A DNA stretch of 64,000 nucleotides, from NCBI GenBank assembly GCA_042408215.1, contig JAYFMW010000003.1, forward strand, positions 32,001-96,000, in the 5' to 3' direction. This DNA comes from Microcoleus sp. GTDB taxonomy: Bacteria; Cyanobacteriota; Cyanobacteriia; Cyanobacteriales; Microcoleaceae. Shown piece after piece: positions 41,660 through 58,099 of this stretch (the stretch's first letter is position 1; every line of letters begins with the position of its first letter). A model generated the notes under the pieces. It was not told the DNA's origin and did no database searches. It saw nothing but the letters and a program-made list of their open reading frames with translations. The position numbers and the translations under genes are program-made.

Positions 41660-41802
41660 TGACAGAAGTCATTGGTCATTGGTCATTGGTCATTGGTCAT
41701 TAGTCATTAGTCATCAGTCATTAGTCATCAGTCATTAGTCATCAGTCATCAGTCATTGGTCACATGACTTATATCAAAAAGTTGCACTTTTTCCAAGCAT
41801 CT

Positions 41803-41820
41803 GTTATATTAATTTACATA
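41803..41820 (+). promoter_or_regulatory. HLR1-like (RpaB) site
   Basis: GTTATATT-AA-TTTACATA direct repeat upstream of hli. Confidence 0.65.
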
Positions 41821-41853
41821 AGCTCACAAAAGTTAACGAAAGGAGTTCATACC

Positions 41854-42006
41854 ATGCAAGAACCAAAACGCAACGCTTGGAGCTGGGGCTTCAGCGAAGG
41901 AGCCGAAAATTGGAACGGTCGTCTGGCGATGATTGGTTTCTCTGCTGCTGTCATCATCGAATTGGTTTCCGGTCAAGGCGTGCTTCACTTTTGGGGCCTA
42001 ATGTAA
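41854..42006 (+). CDS. hli: High-light-inducible protein (copy 1)
   Basis: AENWNGRLAMIGF motif; AGGAG RBS. Confidence 0.93.
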   Translation: MQEPKRNAWSWGFSEGAENWNGRLAMIGFSAAVIIELVSGQGVLHFWGLM

Positions 42007-42315
42007 TTTTTTAGTTGATACGTTTCAGGAATTACGAAATTTGGGAGTTTCTTTCGAGACTCCCAAATTTTTTGTACTGATTTTCGACTCGCAGCCAACA
42101 GTCAACCGTCAACCGTCAACAGTCAACAGTCAACCGTCAACAGTCAACAATCATTGCTGAGTGCAAACCGAATCCAAATCACTCTTTTGGGTGATGCTAG
42201 GCAAATACTCTATTGGTCATTAGTCATTGGTCATTAGTCATTAGTCATTAGTCATCAGTCATCAGTCATTGGTCACATGACTTATATCAAAAAGTTGCAC
42301 TTTAGTCAAGCATCT

Positions 42316-42333
42316 GTTATATTAATTTACATA
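42316..42333 (+). promoter_or_regulatory. HLR1-like (RpaB) site, duplicate
   Basis: Identical to 41803-41820. Confidence 0.65.
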
Positions 42334-42366
42334 AGCTCACAAAAGTTAACGAAAGGAGTTCATACC

Positions 42367-42519
42367 ATGCAAGAACCAAAACGCAACGCTTGGAGCTGGG
42401 GCTTCAGCGAAGGAGCCGAAAATTGGAACGGTCGTCTGGCGATGATTGGTTTCTCTGCTGCTGCGATCGTTGAATTGGTTTCCGGTCAAGGCGTGCTTCA
42501 CTTTTGGGGTCTCATCTAA
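42367..42519 (+). CDS. hli: High-light-inducible protein (copy 2)
   Basis: Three aa differences from copy 1. Confidence 0.93.
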   Translation: MQEPKRNAWSWGFSEGAENWNGRLAMIGFSAAAIVELVSGQGVLHFWGLI

Positions 42520-43892: not shown

Positions 43893-45440
43893 GCTGCCTT
43901 CCTCATGCTCCTGAATGGAAGAATAAATAACAGTGGAAAGTGTCTCTTTGTAGTTTAGACAAGTTAGCGAGTATTGGCATTCCCGCAGCAAGAAATATTC
44001 GGATTTTCGACTTACAAGCCGACAATGCACCAGTTTTAGCAGTGCAGGTTCGAGTTTTGGCGTGAAATCGCAATCGCATTCAATCGATCGCCAACATCAG
44101 AGTCGCGACATGAAATCGAGTGTTTTGCTTTTTCTTTCGCAGCTATTTACCATAGGAGCTGCGATACCTAACGAGCGAAGGAGCGAACCTAGAGATGGGA
44201 GCGCTCACATCTCTACAAATACTGGCTTTTCTACTTGGTACTTCGAGCTTTTACCCGTACAAGTTTTCCTGTACGGAACTCTAACTTCTGCTTGACAAGT
44301 GTTTAACTTTTGGTTCGCTTGCTGCTTTCACTCTAATCACTAGACATCACAGTTCCCAGGCGATTTTTCGCCACCTTGGATGTCCGTCTGCTGCCTAAAA
44401 TGCAACAACTTTGAGTCTAAGTACCGAACGGTGAGTCTTGGATATGGCAAAGACCTTTCCGATTGTAACCTTTCTTACCAAAAATGGATGTTGTTTTCCA
44501 TTATTTGTCAAGAACTCGGAAAGCCCTGTTAGCTTAGCTTGACAAGGCCGACTAATGTCAACCTCAGCTAAATCCTGAGAATCATCCGCAAGAACTTTGA
44601 TACTTGGCGGCGGTGTTGTTTTCTGCGAAGATCTGGGTGAACGGCTGCGGCGTAGTAGGTCAGAAATTTAGCAGACTGTTTTTGACTTGCCGGAATTCCG
44701 GCCAATGCAATCCGTGTAGATGCACCCATCTTTATCCTGTTTCCCTGAATTGAATCATACGCAATTTGCGATCGAATAAAGCTCGTAGCTTTAGTTGTGA
44801 CTCGGCTACTCTGGATTAGAGACCGAAAATTACCCCAAATGAAGCGTTGCGGGTTTAGTAGTGCAACAGGGGGCTTTCTTTGTTAAGTTAGCTCAAATCT
44901 CCGAAATAGGATCTAATTTTAACGTTAAATCACATTAAGTTCTTAACGTCACATTCTCATTTAAGCAGTTCGACGGGAGTTTGTCGCGTCGGGGGTAAAA
45001 GCCATCCGGATAAATTCTACTGAGAATTCCCCCAAATGGCAACTCCAGGCTGCAAACTTGTCAATGATTTGTTGAGTTTCGGCGAACACCTGTGCGATCG
45101 CACCCTCTCAGAAACCACACAATTCGCCATCTCCCAGCAGCACAACTTCTCAGTTCCTTTAAATATATCGTTACAATGTGCAGATTCGATTAAGACGTTT
45201 CATAAATTTTAGGTAAAATTACCCAATTGTCTTGAATCGTCACGATCGCCCGGTACTGTTACCCATCCGATTCTGCTGGATGAGCTTAAGGATGTTGATG
45301 GTAGGGCGGTGGTGCGTGCGATCGGACTTTTGTGACATTTCTTTACAACTTGTCCTCCGAAAGCTTAACCTCTAAATCATCGATCGCACTCCTAGCTCAG
45401 CAATGAATCGAGCAAAAATTGTCTATAAAGTTGATTATAC

Positions 45441-46067
45441 CTACTGAGTATTGATGCTTTCTAATAAACCTTGACAAAAGAATTGGAAGCTTTTAGAGCG
45501 ATTTGATTCAGGATTCATATATTGAGAAATTTCGCTAGATGCTTTATATTTTTCCAATCCTCCCTGATGATATCCTGCTTTTTTTAAGACTCTTTCTAAA
45601 GCCTCCCAGGTGCCTCCTTTGATAGCATCAGGATCTCGATATGGTTCTTGATTAGCTAAATTGGTAGAAACTTTAGGAGTAGCTCGACAAATTGCATCAA
45701 CATCGCCGAAAAACCACGCTTCTAATTCTTCAACCACAATTCGATTTAATAATTGAAATGATTTATCTTTTTTACAGGAAGATTTAGCGATCGATCCGGC
45801 TAATATTGCTATGTCTTCTAATTGTTTTTTTAATCTTAGACAATCTTCTCTATCTTCATCTATTAAAATAACAATTTTCCAATCAGGCGGAAGCCATGCT
45901 CGATCACCTTTCAAACGATTAGGCAATTTACAAATTAAATCATCTTTCCCTCGAAAAGCATGAATTTTAAATGTAACAGTCGATGGCAATATTTTCGGCA
46001 AAAGCTGGGTTAAAGCTGATTCTAGGGATGCTTCTTCCACTAAAAACTCAAAATGCAAAATACTCAC
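45441..46067 (-). CDS. DUF4276-family (TOPRIM-like) protein
   Basis: FLVEEAS, DED, EELEAWFFGD, NRSKSF. Confidence 0.8.
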   Translation of the reverse strand: MSILHFEFLVEEASLESALTQLLPKILPSTVTFKIHAFRGKDDLICKLPNRLKGDRAWLPPDWKIVILIDEDREDCLRLKKQLEDIAILAGSIAKSSCKKDKSFQLLNRIVVEELEAWFFGDVDAICRATPKVSTNLANQEPYRDPDAIKGGTWEALERVLKKAGYHQGGLEKYKASSEISQYMNPESNRSKSFQFFCQGLLESINTQ

Positions 46068-46073
46068 CTCCTC

Positions 46074-47294
46074 TTAATTCTTAGGTTTCAATGATTGAGT
46101 AACACCCCCATTTTTGAGAGGATTTCCCACATCAAAAAAATCTTCCATCCACAGCGAACCAAGTAATGCACCATGATTCATGAATTCTTTTACTCCCTGC
46201 ATATCTGCGGTTCGCTTTGCTTGAGTAAAACCTTTTTCATCTCGATATAATACCCATAATTCCTCTGGCTTTAAACTATCCACAAAAAAAGGAGAATGGG
46301 TTGTTACCATTAATTGAGTATTAGCAGAAGCCGAACGACATTCTTCAGCAAGTTGAGGTAATAAACGCGGATGTAAATGATTTTCTGGTTCTTCTATTCC
46401 CACTAATTGCGGTGGATTTGGGTCAAATAATACTGTTAGATAAGCTAAGAGTTTTAACGTACCATCGGAGGCAAATTTTGCCAGAATAGGATGAGAAAAA
46501 GGAGCATCTTTAATTTCCCACAAAAGTCTGCCATCTTGCATAATAGATGCTTCGACTTTTTCCAGGCGTGGAATACGATCGGAAAGGGTTTTTAATATTT
46601 CTTCTAACCGTTGAGGATGTTGTTCTTTTAGGTATTGAATAACATTAGGTAAATTGTCACCAGTGGGAGATAATCTTTCCATTGCGCCTGCTTCGGGAAG
46701 ACTGCGGGTATGATCGGCGGTTAAATAGGATAAATACCAACCTGTAATAAAACGTCTTAAAGCACTAACACGGGGATGTTTGGCAAATTGTCCTAAAGTA
46801 TTTACTGCTAATAATTCAGATGATGCTAGTTGTTCGGTAATCCTTTCGCCTTCTTCATCAGGACTTTCGCCACTAATGACTTGTCCTTCGCCTTTTTTGA
46901 AATCTAAAAAGCGAAAGGGTTTTCCAGATTTTCCGCGCCGCCAGTGTAACCATTCTTCAGCGATGAAAGGACGATTATTTTCCTCATCTATGGCGAGATG
47001 ATAGGTGATTAACGGTGATTTTGATGTCTCTCGATATTTTAATTCAATAATGATGCAGCCTGTACTATCTCTGGTGCGTAATTCTCGAAATCTGCCCCTT
47101 CTATCCCAGGCTTTTCTGAGGCTTTCGGTGAAACATTCAGAGAGGAAAGCGAAAACATCAAAAATAGTTGATTTCCCGCTACCATTGGGCCCTAGAAATA
47201 CGGTTAAGGGGGTAAGATTTTTGAGTTCTAGATTATGCAAAGCTCGGTAATTTTGAACTTTGAGATATTCTATACGGGGAATATTTTTATTCAT
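46074..47294 (-). CDS. AAA_21/ABC-type ATPase
   Basis: [29 protein letters not shown]. Confidence 0.9.
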
Positions 47295-47366
47295 CTGTCT
47301 TCCCCCTTGGATACCCGCACAGTACCTGTACTCAGGTCAGTGACGGGAGGAAAAGGGGGGCAAGGT

Positions 47367-48638
47367 TTATGCTGCATAAGAATAGCCATCCTTTCTCTGA
47401 ATAGTCGAACAATATTTGTAGCTAATTCCCGACACCAATTCTGATGCAGAAATATTGAATGAACCGCTCGCTCTAACTGCAACACGACCAATATAAGTGC
47501 CGATTTTCTTTCCAGAAGTAACTATCGCTTTCACGATGTCACCCGTTTGAAAACCTTTGACAAACTTAAGTCTAGGGACGTATCGAGACGGGAACCCAAA
47601 TTTGTCAGTGCGGCACATTTGGCGCGTTCCATGTCCAGTAGCTTTGATTAACAAAGGTTTGCTGGTTAGAATCTCCAAAGATTCAACCGACCCAACACAA
47701 GCGGCATCTAACCAGTGAGTTTTAGATAAATTCAACCGAGTGCGATTGAACTTGGTTAAACCGCCACTGCCAGTAGAGACAGGCAAACCAGTTTCCTTGA
47801 GTCGATTAAACAATGCCCAGCGAGTTGAATTGACGGCCGCCGCATCTTTTAAAGGACGCTTTGCCTGAGACAAAATTAGCTTTAAAACCTCTGGCTTTTT
47901 AGCTAGGAACTGCTCAATATTTTGAGCTCCTTTCTTGAGATTGCACTTTTCACAAGCCAGGCAAAGATTAGATATCCGGTTAGTACCGCCCTGAGTTTTG
48001 GGATGAATATGCTCAACTTGTAATGGCACATTTTCAACGCCACAGTAAGCACACTTTCTATCCCATTTGTTAAGGAGATACTCGCGGACTTCGTAACCAA
48101 ACAAAGTGCCTTGTTGATACTCAAACCCAGAAATTTCTGGGTTCTCTAATTGCTGCAAATCGAACCGTACAAGTTCTTGAACAATCTTGTTAATGGGCGC
48201 AAGCTTAATCAGTTTTTTCACCCAAGTTAAAGTTGTCTCAACCCGATGGTTCAGGCAAGGAGCTAACCAACCTTTAGGGCGCGTCCGGTTCAAAAATCTG
48301 GCTGGGCGATAACGAGTATGGCGATTGCGCCGCCCCCTCCGTATTGAGCGGCGGGATTCTAAACTAGCTTTAATAGCTTGACCCCGATGGGTTAGTTCAG
48401 CACCCCATAAGACTTTTTCTCCTTGAACTAAGGCGATACCAGTTGTTTGAGAACCAGGATCTATTTTTAAGGTGATTGGTTCTGGAGTTGCTGTTACTTC
48501 CACTTTGAGGATTATGGTAAATGGATACCTTTTGAAAACAGCCGCTTTGCCAGTAGTTAGTAACTTACGAGCCATTCCTGGTCGTATTAGATTGAGTGGT
48601 CGTTTCTGGGTATCAAGTACGAAAACAAAATTAGACAT
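47367..48638 (-). CDS. iscB: RNA-guided endonuclease IscB
   Basis: PLMP-like N-terminus, IDPGS RuvC-I, Arg-rich bridge helix, ELVRFD, CAYC..EHIHP..NL..C..CN HNH, HWLDAAC. Confidence 0.95.
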   Translation of the reverse strand: MSNFVFVLDTQKRPLNLIRPGMARKLLTTGKAAVFKRYPFTIILKVEVTATPEPITLKIDPGSQTTGIALVQGEKVLWGAELTHRGQAIKASLESRRSIRRGRRNRHTRYRPARFLNRTRPKGWLAPCLNHRVETTLTWVKKLIKLAPINKIVQELVRFDLQQLENPEISGFEYQQGTLFGYEVREYLLNKWDRKCAYCGVENVPLQVEHIHPKTQGGTNRISNLCLACEKCNLKKGAQNIEQFLAKKPEVLKLILSQAKRPLKDAAAVNSTRWALFNRLKETGLPVSTGSGGLTKFNRTRLNLSKTHWLDAACVGSVESLEILTSKPLLIKATGHGTRQMCRTDKFGFPSRYVPRLKFVKGFQTGDIVKAIVTSGKKIGTYIGRVAVRASGSFNISASELVSGISYKYCSTIQRKDGYSYAA

Positions 48639-48639
48639 T

Positions 48640-48886
48640 TTAAGTCCTCCCTTGCGGGGTAAGGTTAGCTTCGTCAATGTTTAAGGTCGGTACTATCTCA
48701 AAAGCACTGGGTTAACCCTTACCCCTGTTTAACTTTTAAGTTCTAGTGCAGAAAACTAGCTTCGCATTCTCTGGTAGGTACTTTAACGCTTACCTTAAAC
48801 GTAGTGATTTAACACTTAGACTGGTCAACTTGGCGAATTTATTGCCCCCACTATATCGGTACTCCGATTAGTGGCGGGTAGTTGAC
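48640..48886 (-). ncRNA. IscB omegaRNA scaffold
   Basis: GACCAGTCTAAG..CTACGTT..GAATGCGAAGCTAGTT..ACATTGACGAAGCTAAC..CCCGCAAGGGAG directly upstream of iscB. Confidence 0.85.
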
Positions 48887-49059
48887 TTCACCTCCTTAAC
48901 TATACTTGCTGTTTGTTGATGGAAATTATATCGTTTACGGTTTTTTCTGGATGATTGAACCGCAGAGGGCGCAGAGGGCGCAGAGGAAAAGAAGGGAGAG
49001 ATGAAATTAGGTCATCTTGAGCGACGAGCATTACCATCTATCACCAGCGAAACACATGA

Positions 49060-49941
49060 TTATTGATTTCGCAGTTTAGGATTGACAAACTCATTCAATC
49101 CTTCTCCCACCAAAGACAATCCTACTACCATTAAAGTCATTGCCAAACCGGGAAATAAAGCTGTCCACCAAATGCCGGTAGGTAGCGCATCCAGGGCTAA
49201 ACGCAAATCGTGTCCCCATTCTGGGGTTTCTTCGGGAAGTCCCAAACCGAGAAATCCTAAACCCCCCAAGGTTAAAATTGCATCGGCGGCGTTGAGTGCA
49301 AACAGCACCGGTACGCTCTGAATCACATTCAGAAACAGATAGCGATAAAGCACTGTCCAAGTATCCGCACCCATTGCTCTAGCGGCTTCGACAAAGAGTT
49401 CGGTTTTGACACTGGCGGTGTGATTTCTGACGACGCGGTAGTATTGAGGAATGTAGGAGATGCTCAGGGCGATCGCAGCATTCAAAACTCCTTTCCCTAC
49501 GACAAACGCCAGAGTCAAAGAAAGCAGCAATCCCGGCAAAGTATAAATGGTATCCATTAAAAATAACAAGATGCGATCGAGCTTACCGCCCAAATAGCCG
49601 CTAACCAATCCCAACGGTACACCGATAAACAAACTCAAAGCCGTAGCTAGAATTACCACTTGCCAAGCAGCGCGAGAAGCAAAAAGCGTCCGAGAAAAAA
49701 CATCATAGCCACTGCGGCTAGTACCAAACCAGTAACTCGCCGATGGTGGTTCATGGATAGGGTTAATCAAAGCATCTGTAGGATTTTGCAGCCATCCCCA
49801 AGTCTGCATAGCTGGAGACAAGGTAGCAATCAATACAAACACAGCAGTTATTGCCAAACCCACCCACATCATTTTCATTGACAGGTTTGACGGGGCGGCA
49901 AGGTTGAGAAATCTCGGTAGTCGGAGGCGGCTTTGAGCCAT
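49060..49941 (-). CDS. Peptide ABC transporter permease (DppC/OppC)
   Basis: WFGT...DVFSR, EAARAMGA, LGFLGLG..PEWG. Confidence 0.92.
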   Translation of the reverse strand: MAQSRLRLPRFLNLAAPSNLSMKMMWVGLAITAVFVLIATLSPAMQTWGWLQNPTDALINPIHEPPSASYWFGTSRSGYDVFSRTLFASRAAWQVVILATALSLFIGVPLGLVSGYLGGKLDRILLFLMDTIYTLPGLLLSLTLAFVVGKGVLNAAIALSISYIPQYYRVVRNHTASVKTELFVEAARAMGADTWTVLYRYLFLNVIQSVPVLFALNAADAILTLGGLGFLGLGLPEETPEWGHDLRLALDALPTGIWWTALFPGLAMTLMVVGLSLVGEGLNEFVNPKLRNQ

Positions 49942-50221
49942 AGTTGCTATATATATACAATTCTAGACTTTTAGATTCTAGTAGGAGCAAGGCTAAAAAA
50001 CCCGGTTTCTCTCCAAAATCATCTAGGTTTTACCCAAAACTGTTGGAAACCGGGTTTTTGGTTGCTGTGCAATATCAAATCCGCTGGTATCATCCTGTAC
50101 TCATTTCTCTCTTCTCTTCCTCTGCGCCCTCTGCGCCCTCTGTGGTTAAATCACTCCGATCCAACCAGAATTGATACAATATCAAATTCGTTGACATCGG
50201 AATCATTCACCCCTCTCTTCT

Positions 50222-55111: not shown

Positions 55112-56485
55112 CCGCTCTGAAAAACTTACCCAAAACCAGACAAACCCCGACAAACCGGAGATTAAATAGTTTTAGTGTTTTCTTCCTGCTTCTCACGGTC
55201 GGTAATCCGAGCCCATCCACAGGCAGAGCACCCGTAAGCTACGGGCTGTACAAGGAAAGTTTTAAAACTCTTAAACCTTCGTGTTTCAAATTAACGGCGG
55301 CATTTTCATCCCGAGCCTGAACATGACCGCAATTTTCACACTTATATATTCTATCAGCAAGAGTCAAATCTTGTTTATGTCCACAATTAGAACATGATTT
55401 AGAAGACGGATACCAGCGGTCAACTATTACTAAATGTGAACCATACAACTGGCATTTATATTCCAACTGTCTTCGGAATTCAAACAAACCTAAATCGGCT
55501 ATAGCGCGAAGCTCATTTAGGGTTTTTCAGCATCCCTTTGACGTTTAAATCTTCAATACAGATCGCATCAAAAGTTTTGGCCAGCCATGTAGTCAATTTG
55601 TGCAGATAGTCTTTTCTGATATTCGCAACGTGCGAATGAAACCGTCCTAATTTAATCTTTACAGACTGATAAGATGCGGTTCCTTTTTGCTGGCGACTAA
55701 GTGACCGAGATAATTTTCTAAGCCTTCCTAGCGCCGCTTTCAGAGGTTTTATATTAGGGATAACTTGACCATTGCTCAACGTAGCCAGTGATTTAATTCC
55801 CAGATCAACACCTACAACTTCGATTGGTTCTCTCATTGGCTGTGACGGTGTTTCTCTCTTGAAACTTACAAACCACTTATCTGCTTTTTTACTGATGGTG
55901 AAATTTTTGACTTTTCCCAAAGCCGGTAATTTCTCAAAAGTTCTGACCTTACCAATATTAGGAATCTGTACCCAAGTAGAACCCACAATTGTGGAACCAT
56001 CACAAGTAAAACTATCGTGAAATCCTTTCTTTTTGAAGTTGGGAAATCCCTTTTCTGGTTGTTTAAAGAAATTGTTTAAAGCATCTCTAACATGGCGTGT
56101 AGCATAATTATGACATCCTTTCGACACTTCATAAGTCCAAGGGTTTTCTGATTTTACCTCAGCCGTAAATCGCTTATTCAGATCTATGGCCGTTGGTAAT
56201 TTAATTTTGTTTTCTGGTTGAGCTTTATTATGTTGTAAGCTGGCAATTAAAACTTGAACTCCCCAATTATAAGCATATCTAGCTACCCCTGCTGATTTAG
56301 CCAGCAAAGTACGTTGTTTATTGTTGGGGTTAAGTTCGGTTTTAAAACCCAGCAGCATTTTACGAACTGTCAAAACGAATGGTAATATCAGTTTAACGCT
56401 TGTATTATGGTTTGTCAATCAACTATAAATGTGTTCTCGTAGCTGGGTCGGAAAAAGTCCAGAATGTCTGGGTAATTTACGTCCT
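55112..56485 (-). mobile_element. IS607-type element lacking tnpA, with a disrupted tnpB
   Basis: Right end TTTGTC repeats...TAAGTTTTTCAGAGCGG; left boundary approximate. Confidence 0.7.
55239..56358 (-). pseudogene. tnpB: tnpB (IS607-type) with a stop and frameshift at ~55505-55515
   Basis: MLLGFKTELNPNNKQ, GVDLG, IEDL, then TGA plus one extra base before RAIADLGLFEFRRQLEYK; Zn finger, RDENAA. Confidence 0.85.
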
Positions 56486-56742
56486 GGACAATACCCTATG
56501 CCCTATGCCCTATGCCCAATCCCCAAGCGTACCTCATTAAACAGAGAAGGGTTAGGACGTTTTGAATTGCTGAAACCATTGATTTTATTGCTTCTTCCTT
56601 CTTCCTTCTTCCTTCAGCATCTGCTATACCACCTTAATTTGGCTACCAACTCAAGTTTCCACCTTAGTTTTGGGAGAATTTGCTCAAAAGTGGCGGACGA
56701 CTGCTGTACCCCAAGACAGGAATTTGCGACTGATAGATGTCT

Positions 56743-58099
56743 TTGACACTCCTCGGCCTGAAGGCACGAGGATTCTTGGTTCAGTCAGTCGGCTTGCCCG
56801 TTGATGTTACCACCAGCGAGTAGAGGTCGGTCTGTCCCCAAGCGTTAATTCCGGTGTGCCCCACCGTATTTAAATTAATTCCAGCACGGGCTTTCAATCC
56901 TTTCGCCAAAATATTCAAAGCTGCATTATGATCGCGATCTAAAACTGTACCACAACTGCAAACATGAGTCCTAACTGAAAGCGATTTCTTAACACGATTC
57001 CCACAACTTGAACAATCTTGGGAAGTGTACTGAGGAGCAACAGCAATTACCGTTTTACCGTACACTTTCCCAAAATATTGCAACCATTGGGCAAACTGTG
57101 ACCACGCTGCATCACTAATTGATTTAGCAAGCTTATGGTTTTTCACCATATTTCTCACTTGCAGATTTTCGTAAGCTACGAAATCGCTAGATTTCACTAC
57201 GCACAACGCCGTCTTAATGGCGAAGTCTTTGCGCTGCCTACTGACTTTCAAATGTTTTCTACCTAACTTATTGATAGCTTTCTTACGATTGCCCGAACCT
57301 TTCTTTTTCCGAGAAACTCGTTTCTGTAATCGCTTTAAAGCTTTTTCACTTTTACGCAAATGTCGAGGATTAGGAACTGTTTCTCCGGTGCTATCAGTGT
57401 AGAAATGGTTTAAACCTACATCCAACCCTACGGCTTTGCCAGTAGGAATTGTTTCCTCTGTCCGTTCCACGTCGATACAAAACTGAGCGTAGTAGCCATC
57501 GGCACGACGGATTACTCTGATTCGTTTGATTTCACCAGGTGCATAGAAGTGCAAATCTCGACTACCAAGTAGCCTAAATGTTCCAGCGGCAAAATCATCC
57601 GTGAAAGTTAGACATCTTTTGTCGACAGAAAGCTGACAACCTGAAGTCTTATATTCTACAGAACGGGTGTGTTTCTTAAACTGCGGGTATCCCTTTTTCC
57701 CTGGCTTCTTAGCCTTACAATTCGAGAAAAAACGTTGGATCGCAAAAATGGCACGTTCCGCCGAAGCTTGACGTGCCATTGAGTTAAGTTTTCCTGCCCA
57801 TTCAAACTCTTTAGCCATGATGGCGCATTGTTTGTATAGATCGACCAACTTAACTCCTTGATGATCGATCCAATATCTAAGAGTTTTGTTTCGGACAAAT
57901 TGAGCTGTGCGGATCATTTCGTCGATCATCCGATATTGCTGCGCTTTGCCCTTTAACTTAAACTCTAGTACAATCATGCCATTATTCTATCATTTTTACA
58001 AAGCACTGTGTTTAAAAAGTGCGTAGGTTTAATAATTATTTACACTTTATAGAAATTAAAGCCGTCCTAGAAGGACGGGGCTTTAGACCCATTGTCTTG
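56743..58099 (-). mobile_element. IS605/IS1341-type element (tnpB only)
   Basis: Inserted 3' of TTAC; left hairpin AAAGCCCCGTCC..GGACGGCTTT; right end AGAATCCTCG..CGAGGAGTGTCAA. Confidence 0.88.
56781..57977 (-). CDS. tnpB: RNA-guided endonuclease TnpB, apparently intact
   Basis: GLDVG, YENL, CSSC..CSC, DRDHNAA. Confidence 0.93.
   Translation of the reverse strand: MIVLEFKLKGKAQQYRMIDEMIRTAQFVRNKTLRYWIDHQGVKLVDLYKQCAIMAKEFEWAGKLNSMARQASAERAIFAIQRFFSNCKAKKPGKKGYPQFKKHTRSVEYKTSGCQLSVDKRCLTFTDDFAAGTFRLLGSRDLHFYAPGEIKRIRVIRRADGYYAQFCIDVERTEETIPTGKAVGLDVGLNHFYTDSTGETVPNPRHLRKSEKALKRLQKRVSRKKKGSGNRKKAINKLGRKHLKVSRQRKDFAIKTALCVVKSSDFVAYENLQVRNMVKNHKLAKSISDAAWSQFAQWLQYFGKVYGKTVIAVAPQYTSQDCSSCGNRVKKSLSVRTHVCSCGTVLDRDHNAALNILAKGLKARAGINLNTVGHTGINAWGQTDLYSLVVTSTGKPTD

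Follow-up and report, generated by a model that had tools for sequence, protein, structure and literature searches.

The window, which is the whole stretch of 64,000 nucleotides of Microcoleus sp. DNA that was analysed, contains on its minus strand an IscB transposon that is inserted exactly between a strong Shine-Dalgarno sequence and the ATG of an ABC-type ATPase gene. All features of the locus lie on the minus strand and are given here in their order of reading.

49060..49941 (-): ABC permease gene, upstream of the element on the same strand, possible source of read-through
48925..48930 (-): TATAAT, -10-like
48899..48904 (-): TATAGT, -10-like, directly before the Shine-Dalgarno sequence
48888..48898 (-): host Shine-Dalgarno sequence TAAGGAGGTGA, now severed from its gene
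48887..48906 (-): predicted guide, host leader adjoining the scaffold
47295..48886 (-): IscB/omegaRNA element of the IS200/IS605 type (ISC2), 1,592 bp
48659..48886 (-): omegaRNA scaffold (HEARO, RF02033), beginning at the first base of the element
47367..48638 (-): iscB, uninterrupted ORF, 423 aa
47302..47359 (-): subterminal hairpin, predicted TnpA-binding end
47302..47308 (-): AAGGGGG, candidate substitute Shine-Dalgarno sequence and 3' arm of the hairpin
47290..47294 (-): ATGAA, insertion target, predicted TAM and ATPase start codon
46074..47294 (-): ABC-type ATPase, HEC-01A-like, 406 aa, intact
45441..46067 (-): DUF4276 protein, HEC-01B-like, intact

The position of the transposon had been proposed in an earlier note made from the sequence, and it is confirmed by the minus-strand junctions, which read TTAAGGAGGTGAA|GTCAAC at 48887/48886 (5') and GGGGGAAGACAG|ATGAATAAA at 47295/47294 (3'), and by the HEARO model, which starts at exactly 48886 (140 bits, model positions 1-211 of 211, gathering score 83; Rfam). 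The element proper amounts to 1,592 bp, and the span 47285..48910 originally assigned to it takes in flanks. Its IscB carries RRXRR/RuvC and HNH domains (NF040563, 465.7 bits, cut-off 175) and the catalytic motifs are seen in the sequence, with roles that we assume for this IscB. A transposase gene and a target duplication are lacking, the omegaRNA scaffold begins at the 5' end, a subterminal hairpin occupies the far end (z of -3.45; 0 of 200 shuffles fold equally well), and the short target is fixed and the empty site precise. No group I intron, as expected at the end of an IStron, was found in an Rfam scan of positions 44000-50000, which gave HEARO only. This single insertion is an ordinary ISC2 and belongs to an already known kind.

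With the ISC transposons described by Kapitonov (2016; PMC4810608), the element shares the 5'-GT end, the subterminal hairpin, the lack of a transposase, the insertion 5' of ATGA without duplication, and the arrangement with TnpB sisters; in the portions of that work consulted, ISC1-1_MA, ISC2-1_HM and ISC2-1_MS have the target N|ATGA, and TnpB sisters such as IS605B-1_MA share the 3' end and possess a 5'-TT end and an antisense tnpB. For ISGst5 IscB from Geobacillus stearothermophilus, passages of a preprint (Meers et al., bioRxiv 10.1101/2023.03.14.532601) report a TAM of TTCAT, which is the reverse complement of the ATGAA at our site, a requirement for host transcription, a guide that lies outside the element as predicted here, and protein-less PATE derivatives that resemble the omegaRNA-only minis described below. 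A full-length HEARO match upstream of an HNH-containing ORF likewise agrees with the HEARO/omegaRNA descriptions consulted (Rfam RF02033; PMC9755519). Family anatomy and these two sources (PMC4810608; bioRxiv 2023.03.14.532601) therefore support the view that the guide would be the host ribosome-binding region and that ATGA adjoins the target, with a predicted role as TAM.

The ATPase (PADLOC, E 5e-174) precedes the HEC-01B-like protein (E 5e-90), an order that is kept in orthologues of the genus and corresponds to the candidate system HEC-01, in which an ABC ATPase is followed by a HEC-01B-matching partner (Payne et al., bioRxiv 10.1101/2024.01.29.577857). The description of the two genes as a putative defence operon holds as far as this match goes, but a published HEC-01 member gave no detectable anti-phage protection in the relevant part of the study that named the system. 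The genome encodes one more HEC-01A-like ATPase (G000:C20:382909-383667), which is distant, with 45% identity along part of the protein.

Empty alleles and transcription signals

When 36 genomes of the same genus, some of them incomplete, were searched, a close orthologue of the ATPase was found in 16. The element is absent from all 16 loci and the upstream permease gene is kept in all of them. The exactly joined site, Shine-Dalgarno sequence followed by ATG, is present in two (G005 and G008), and the other 14 show variants of the same region, many of them with the Shine-Dalgarno sequence followed by ATC ATG, ATT ATG or ATG ATG. In the lineage studied here, the first ATG, 4 nt after GGAGG, is the only start; the empty allele offers no usable start other than the ATG at 47294, because an in-frame stop lies three codons upstream with no start codon in between, and the PADLOC match to HEC-01A begins at residue 6 of the ATPase. 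The junctions were also checked in four DNA or unlabelled sequencing runs. A contig of one DNA run skips exactly 1,592 bases, although with 30 letters on its short side it is borderline, and contigs of two other DNA runs cross the filled junction, one of them with about 2% other letters. A metagenome scan provided one locus, an empty variant. Empty-site alleles, as anticipated in the earlier note, thus exist, and since both empty alleles in orthologues and filled and skipped contigs in DNA runs were encountered, the site is polymorphic among close strains.

No full promoter consensus was found within 170 bp upstream of the element (the scan gave 5 sites, 3.8 being expected), and no terminator-like site was found on the minus strand at the locus. 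TATAAT at 48925..48930 was rejected as evidence for an ancestral promoter, as the exact word is absent from the two closest empty alleles. TATAGT at 48899..48904 occurs as TATAGT or TATAAT in most orthologues; were it the promoter, a guide of only about 6 nt would result, as guide length would be set by the transcription start. The guide could stem from the TATAAT at 48930 or from read-through from the permease gene. The longest seed match of the predicted guide beside another genomic ATGA is 6 nt, and self-targeting through the common Shine-Dalgarno motif was consequently rejected.

Placement of related elements at gene starts

The survey of the same genome covered 27 iscB copies or fragments, of which 17 could be given defined ends; the ten with undefined ends were left out of the counts. 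In the end family of the present element (family A), 12 of 12 copies end at the same point and are followed by ATGA. A second end family (B) gave 47 matches, with ATGA after 27 of the 31 junctions that were set without requiring ATGA, and comprises four full iscB elements, 26 omegaRNA-only minis, 10 TTGAC minis and a few partial ends. That the TTGAC minis belong to the TnpB type is seen from the genome's tnpB right ends, which read ...GAGTGTCAA, and from full tnpB elements, in which the same B hairpin is found. Further TnpB families have other target words and were rejected as controls. TnpA genes are present in the genome (20 Y1_Tnp matches), and one of them may serve the family A end in trans.

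After removal of the elements, genes were called with a home-made hexamer model, which under-calls (5,553 genes, 76% coding) and missed petM and petL as short genes. By these calls, 5.4% of 49,843 ATGA sites are at gene starts, or 16.6% of those ATGA sites that break no called gene. Gene starts were occupied by 6/12 family A copies and 3/4 family B iscB copies (9/16 for ATGA iscB copies), by 20 of the 26 omegaRNA-only minis, and by one of the 10 TnpB-type minis. Analysis of 43 downstream frames with Pfam and NCBIfam confirmed real genes at or near the ATG, among them cobH, chlB, fusA, hisG and pntA as well as rpsP, rplS, psb27, petM and petL. All eight intergenic omegaRNA-bearing ATGA sites that are not at starts lie within 300 nt of a start or stop of a same-strand gene, compared to 3/8 for TnpB-type elements and a background of 47%.

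Several further observations were made. One family A iscB element lies inside a tnpB gene, out of frame (G000:C17:575076-576663). Seven iscB copies have other ends (G000:C5:414644, C5:442108, C21:57714, C30:110606, C7:93696, C14:56918 and C6:361984), several of them finishing near GCGATCGC-like words. The genome contains 129 tnpB loci and several large TnpB-type mini families with ATAA, GTAA or GTCA targets; within the window, two adjacent tnpB genes, one of them split, occupy 55239-57977. At 41764-42519 of the window, two nearly identical 80-codon ORFs are arranged in tandem, which we take to resemble high-light-inducible proteins.

Loci from other cyanobacterial records were added and scored with a local classifier that has a background of 5.5%: 80 of 392 iscB loci and, for B ends, 69 of 79 matches to one pattern and 27 of 38 to another. 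From the pooled counts, 11 of the 80 iscB loci without a defined end, two unparsed loci and 32 untyped B-end loci (9 start-like, 22 not, 1 too short) were dropped. After removal of shared sites, 41/68 iscB elements and 33/44 omegaRNA-only elements are at starts. Elements with a 5' omegaRNA are at starts in 74 of 112 cases, fusA, rpsP, chlB and petM being included, versus 6 of 43, close to background, for the TnpB-type sisters, which share the far end and the ATGA word with them; family A alone accounts for 18/33 (all de-duplicated). When only elements with the same end are compared, 49/69 omegaRNA-bearing stand against 6/43 TnpB-type elements (Fisher p 2e-9, an overstatement because the elements are kin), and the enrichment of iscB persists against a background of 25% (p 8e-10, overstated for the same reason). 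Tabulation therefore bears out the expectation that IscB insertions often abut start codons. As for the suggestion that an ATGA preference brings the elements to gene starts, the enrichment could be counted, but the word alone does not account for it since TnpB-type sisters with the same word remain at background. A GTGA-target iscB family was at starts in 0/10 distinct sites (L138, L141-L147, L152, L167, L170; G000:C20:64660). Insertion of HEARO before ATGA or GTGA was reportedly noted by Weinberg in 2009. One omegaRNA-type mini (L248, G005:C350) lies directly before an ORF with an N-terminus that resembles that of photosystem II D2 (psbD).

Proposed retention at start codons and alternative explanations

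Nearest-copy identity was used as a crude proxy for age. At 92-97% identity, 9/20 iscB copies are at starts, and below 92% the figure is 29/43 (Spearman -0.32, p 0.011, n 63; kinship of the elements makes p overstate). TnpB-type elements reach 1/17 at 97% or more, 2/13 at 92-97% and 2/13 below 92%. In matched bins, iscB and TnpB-type elements differ below 92% (p 0.0013) and not significantly at 92-97% (p 0.13). This control shares the family B end, not that of family A, and is younger on average (17/43 at >=97%); moreover, TnpB-type copies may be actively purged from starts because tnpB would lie antisense there.

The rise of the start share with divergence favours retention over aimed insertion. 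The locus harbours a non-autonomous IscB transposon at an ATGA start codon and its family is concentrated on start codons; we consider it probable that this concentration arises through selective retention of such copies. According to published family work, a TnpA encoded elsewhere would excise and insert the element, host transcription would be needed because the guide lies outside the element, and the nuclease would recut the empty site so that recombination restores the element. With its ATGA, a start codon would offer a target that has a host promoter upstream and at which insertion interrupts no reading frame, and copies at starts would thereby make guide, defend their site and be tolerated, and copies elsewhere would be lost over time. 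At the present site, a host transcript would comprise guide, omegaRNA, iscB, ATPase and DUF4276 gene, and the ATPase would be translated from the Shine-Dalgarno sequence in the hairpin arm or without one. The age trend and the placement near same-strand genes agree with published work, in which transcription from outside is needed and the nuclease drives retention; the GTGA-target family, which persists away from starts, counts against this explanation.

At another locus, contig C23 duplicates part of contig C28 (G000:C23:22798-24418; G000:C28:256576-256790). The C23 copy has an iscB element directly at the start of an OmpR-family regulator gene, presumably RpaA-like, and lacks about 190 nt of the leader; the element-free leader in C28 contains a perfect 20-nt guide match plus ATGA. 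An element-adjacent deletion may have brought the element onto the start codon in C23. In genome G019, an omegaRNA mini (L250) occupies what on visual inspection seems to be a further ATGA of this same leader.

AAGGGGG, 7 nt before the ATG, pairs with the anti-Shine-Dalgarno sequence at -10.0 kcal/mol, compared to -12.1 kcal/mol for the severed host sequence, and only 5% of 399 host genes reach -8. However, it lies in the terminal hairpin (mean unpaired probability 0.32), and the hairpin alone can account for the run, which forms its 3' arm. For most family B ends, pairing reaches just 0 to -3 kcal/mol, and such ends are nevertheless found before rpsP and fusA, so that a universal substitute Shine-Dalgarno sequence was rejected. 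The proposed substitute ribosome-binding site is thus sustained for this element by its pairing strength, and weakened by its enclosure in the hairpin and by sister ends without such a sequence that also stand before essential genes. Since 6 nt separate the iscB stop from the 5' arm of the hairpin that follows, coupling of ATPase initiation to iscB translation is possible.

A bolder version, which we put forward tentatively, is that the start codon has become an evolved niche of ATGA-targeting IscB elements: through the target word they would come to lie behind a host promoter with the leader as guide, the far end would restore translation (in family A through a Shine-Dalgarno sequence released as ribosomes finish iscB), and IscB would act in trans to hold protein-less omegaRNA copies at core-gene starts. 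If this were true, dozens of genes in each genome would have their leaders rewritten by the elements. It seems rather unlikely that at this one site a dispensable candidate defence operon is reduced in expression or silenced by the insertion, in which case no replacement ribosome-binding site would be needed. Such an effect would agree with the pairing of the Shine-Dalgarno-like run in a stable hairpin, with the occurrence of a close orthologue in only 16 of the 36 genomes searched (some incomplete), and with the negative HEC-01 test in the part of the preprint cited above, but both reading frames are intact, related elements occupy the starts of presumably required genes, e.g. rpsP and fusA, and the minus strand has no terminator-like site.

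Coincidence combined with purifying selection, ATGA being the commonest gene start, intragenic insertions being removed and the guide RNA having no role, is an unlikely explanation. Indeed 2,177 of the 5,553 called genes begin with ATGA, and with a caller that under-calls, the background of 16.6% is a low estimate, but the scarcity of TnpB-type elements with the same end and word at starts, and the iscB enrichment over a 25% background, speak against it. Aimed insertion, by which transposase or IscB would steer new copies to leaders or start codons, appears improbable to us: nearly half of the iscB copies occupy starts even in the more similar group, and the passages of the Meers preprint consulted, which describe an orientation bias to the upstream gene, leave generation versus retention open (bioRxiv 10.1101/2023.03.14.532601), but sister elements with the same transposase end are not enriched and the start share climbs with divergence. 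Highly improbable is that the element is removed from the mRNA by splicing, which would rejoin Shine-Dalgarno sequence and ATG. One RNA-library contig does skip exactly 1,592 bases (the RNA runs consist of contigs with small shares, and omegaRNA depth, which sums many copies, was left out of the analysis); it was rejected as evidence for splicing, since the same joined form exists as DNA, most simply as an empty allele, and the Rfam scan gave only HEARO.

The terms 'start codon' and 'translation' are absent from the main text of Kapitonov (2016; PMC4810608), and 'start codon' is absent from its supplement except for one file outside the search; no count of insertions at gene starts was seen in this material. 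In the passages of Meers et al. (bioRxiv 10.1101/2023.03.14.532601) on ISGst5, the TAM is not linked to start codons, unlike in the present count. No publication linking IscB targets to start codons was found among the sources searched, including PMC13180657, PMC13565253 and PMC9755519, a search that left most subscription papers and bioRxiv supplements uncovered. This literature gave no report of a concentration on start codons that is confined to omegaRNA-bearing elements; the TnpB-type control and the age trend are contributed by the present analysis.

The counts bear on the question left open by Meers et al., namely whether IscB elements reach transcribed sites by aimed insertion or persist there by retention, with TnpB-type sisters of the same end and target word as a natural control, and they suggest why an ATGA target suits IscB. 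In one cyanobacterium, dozens of genes, including ribosomal and photosynthesis genes, have transposon RNA directly before their start codon.
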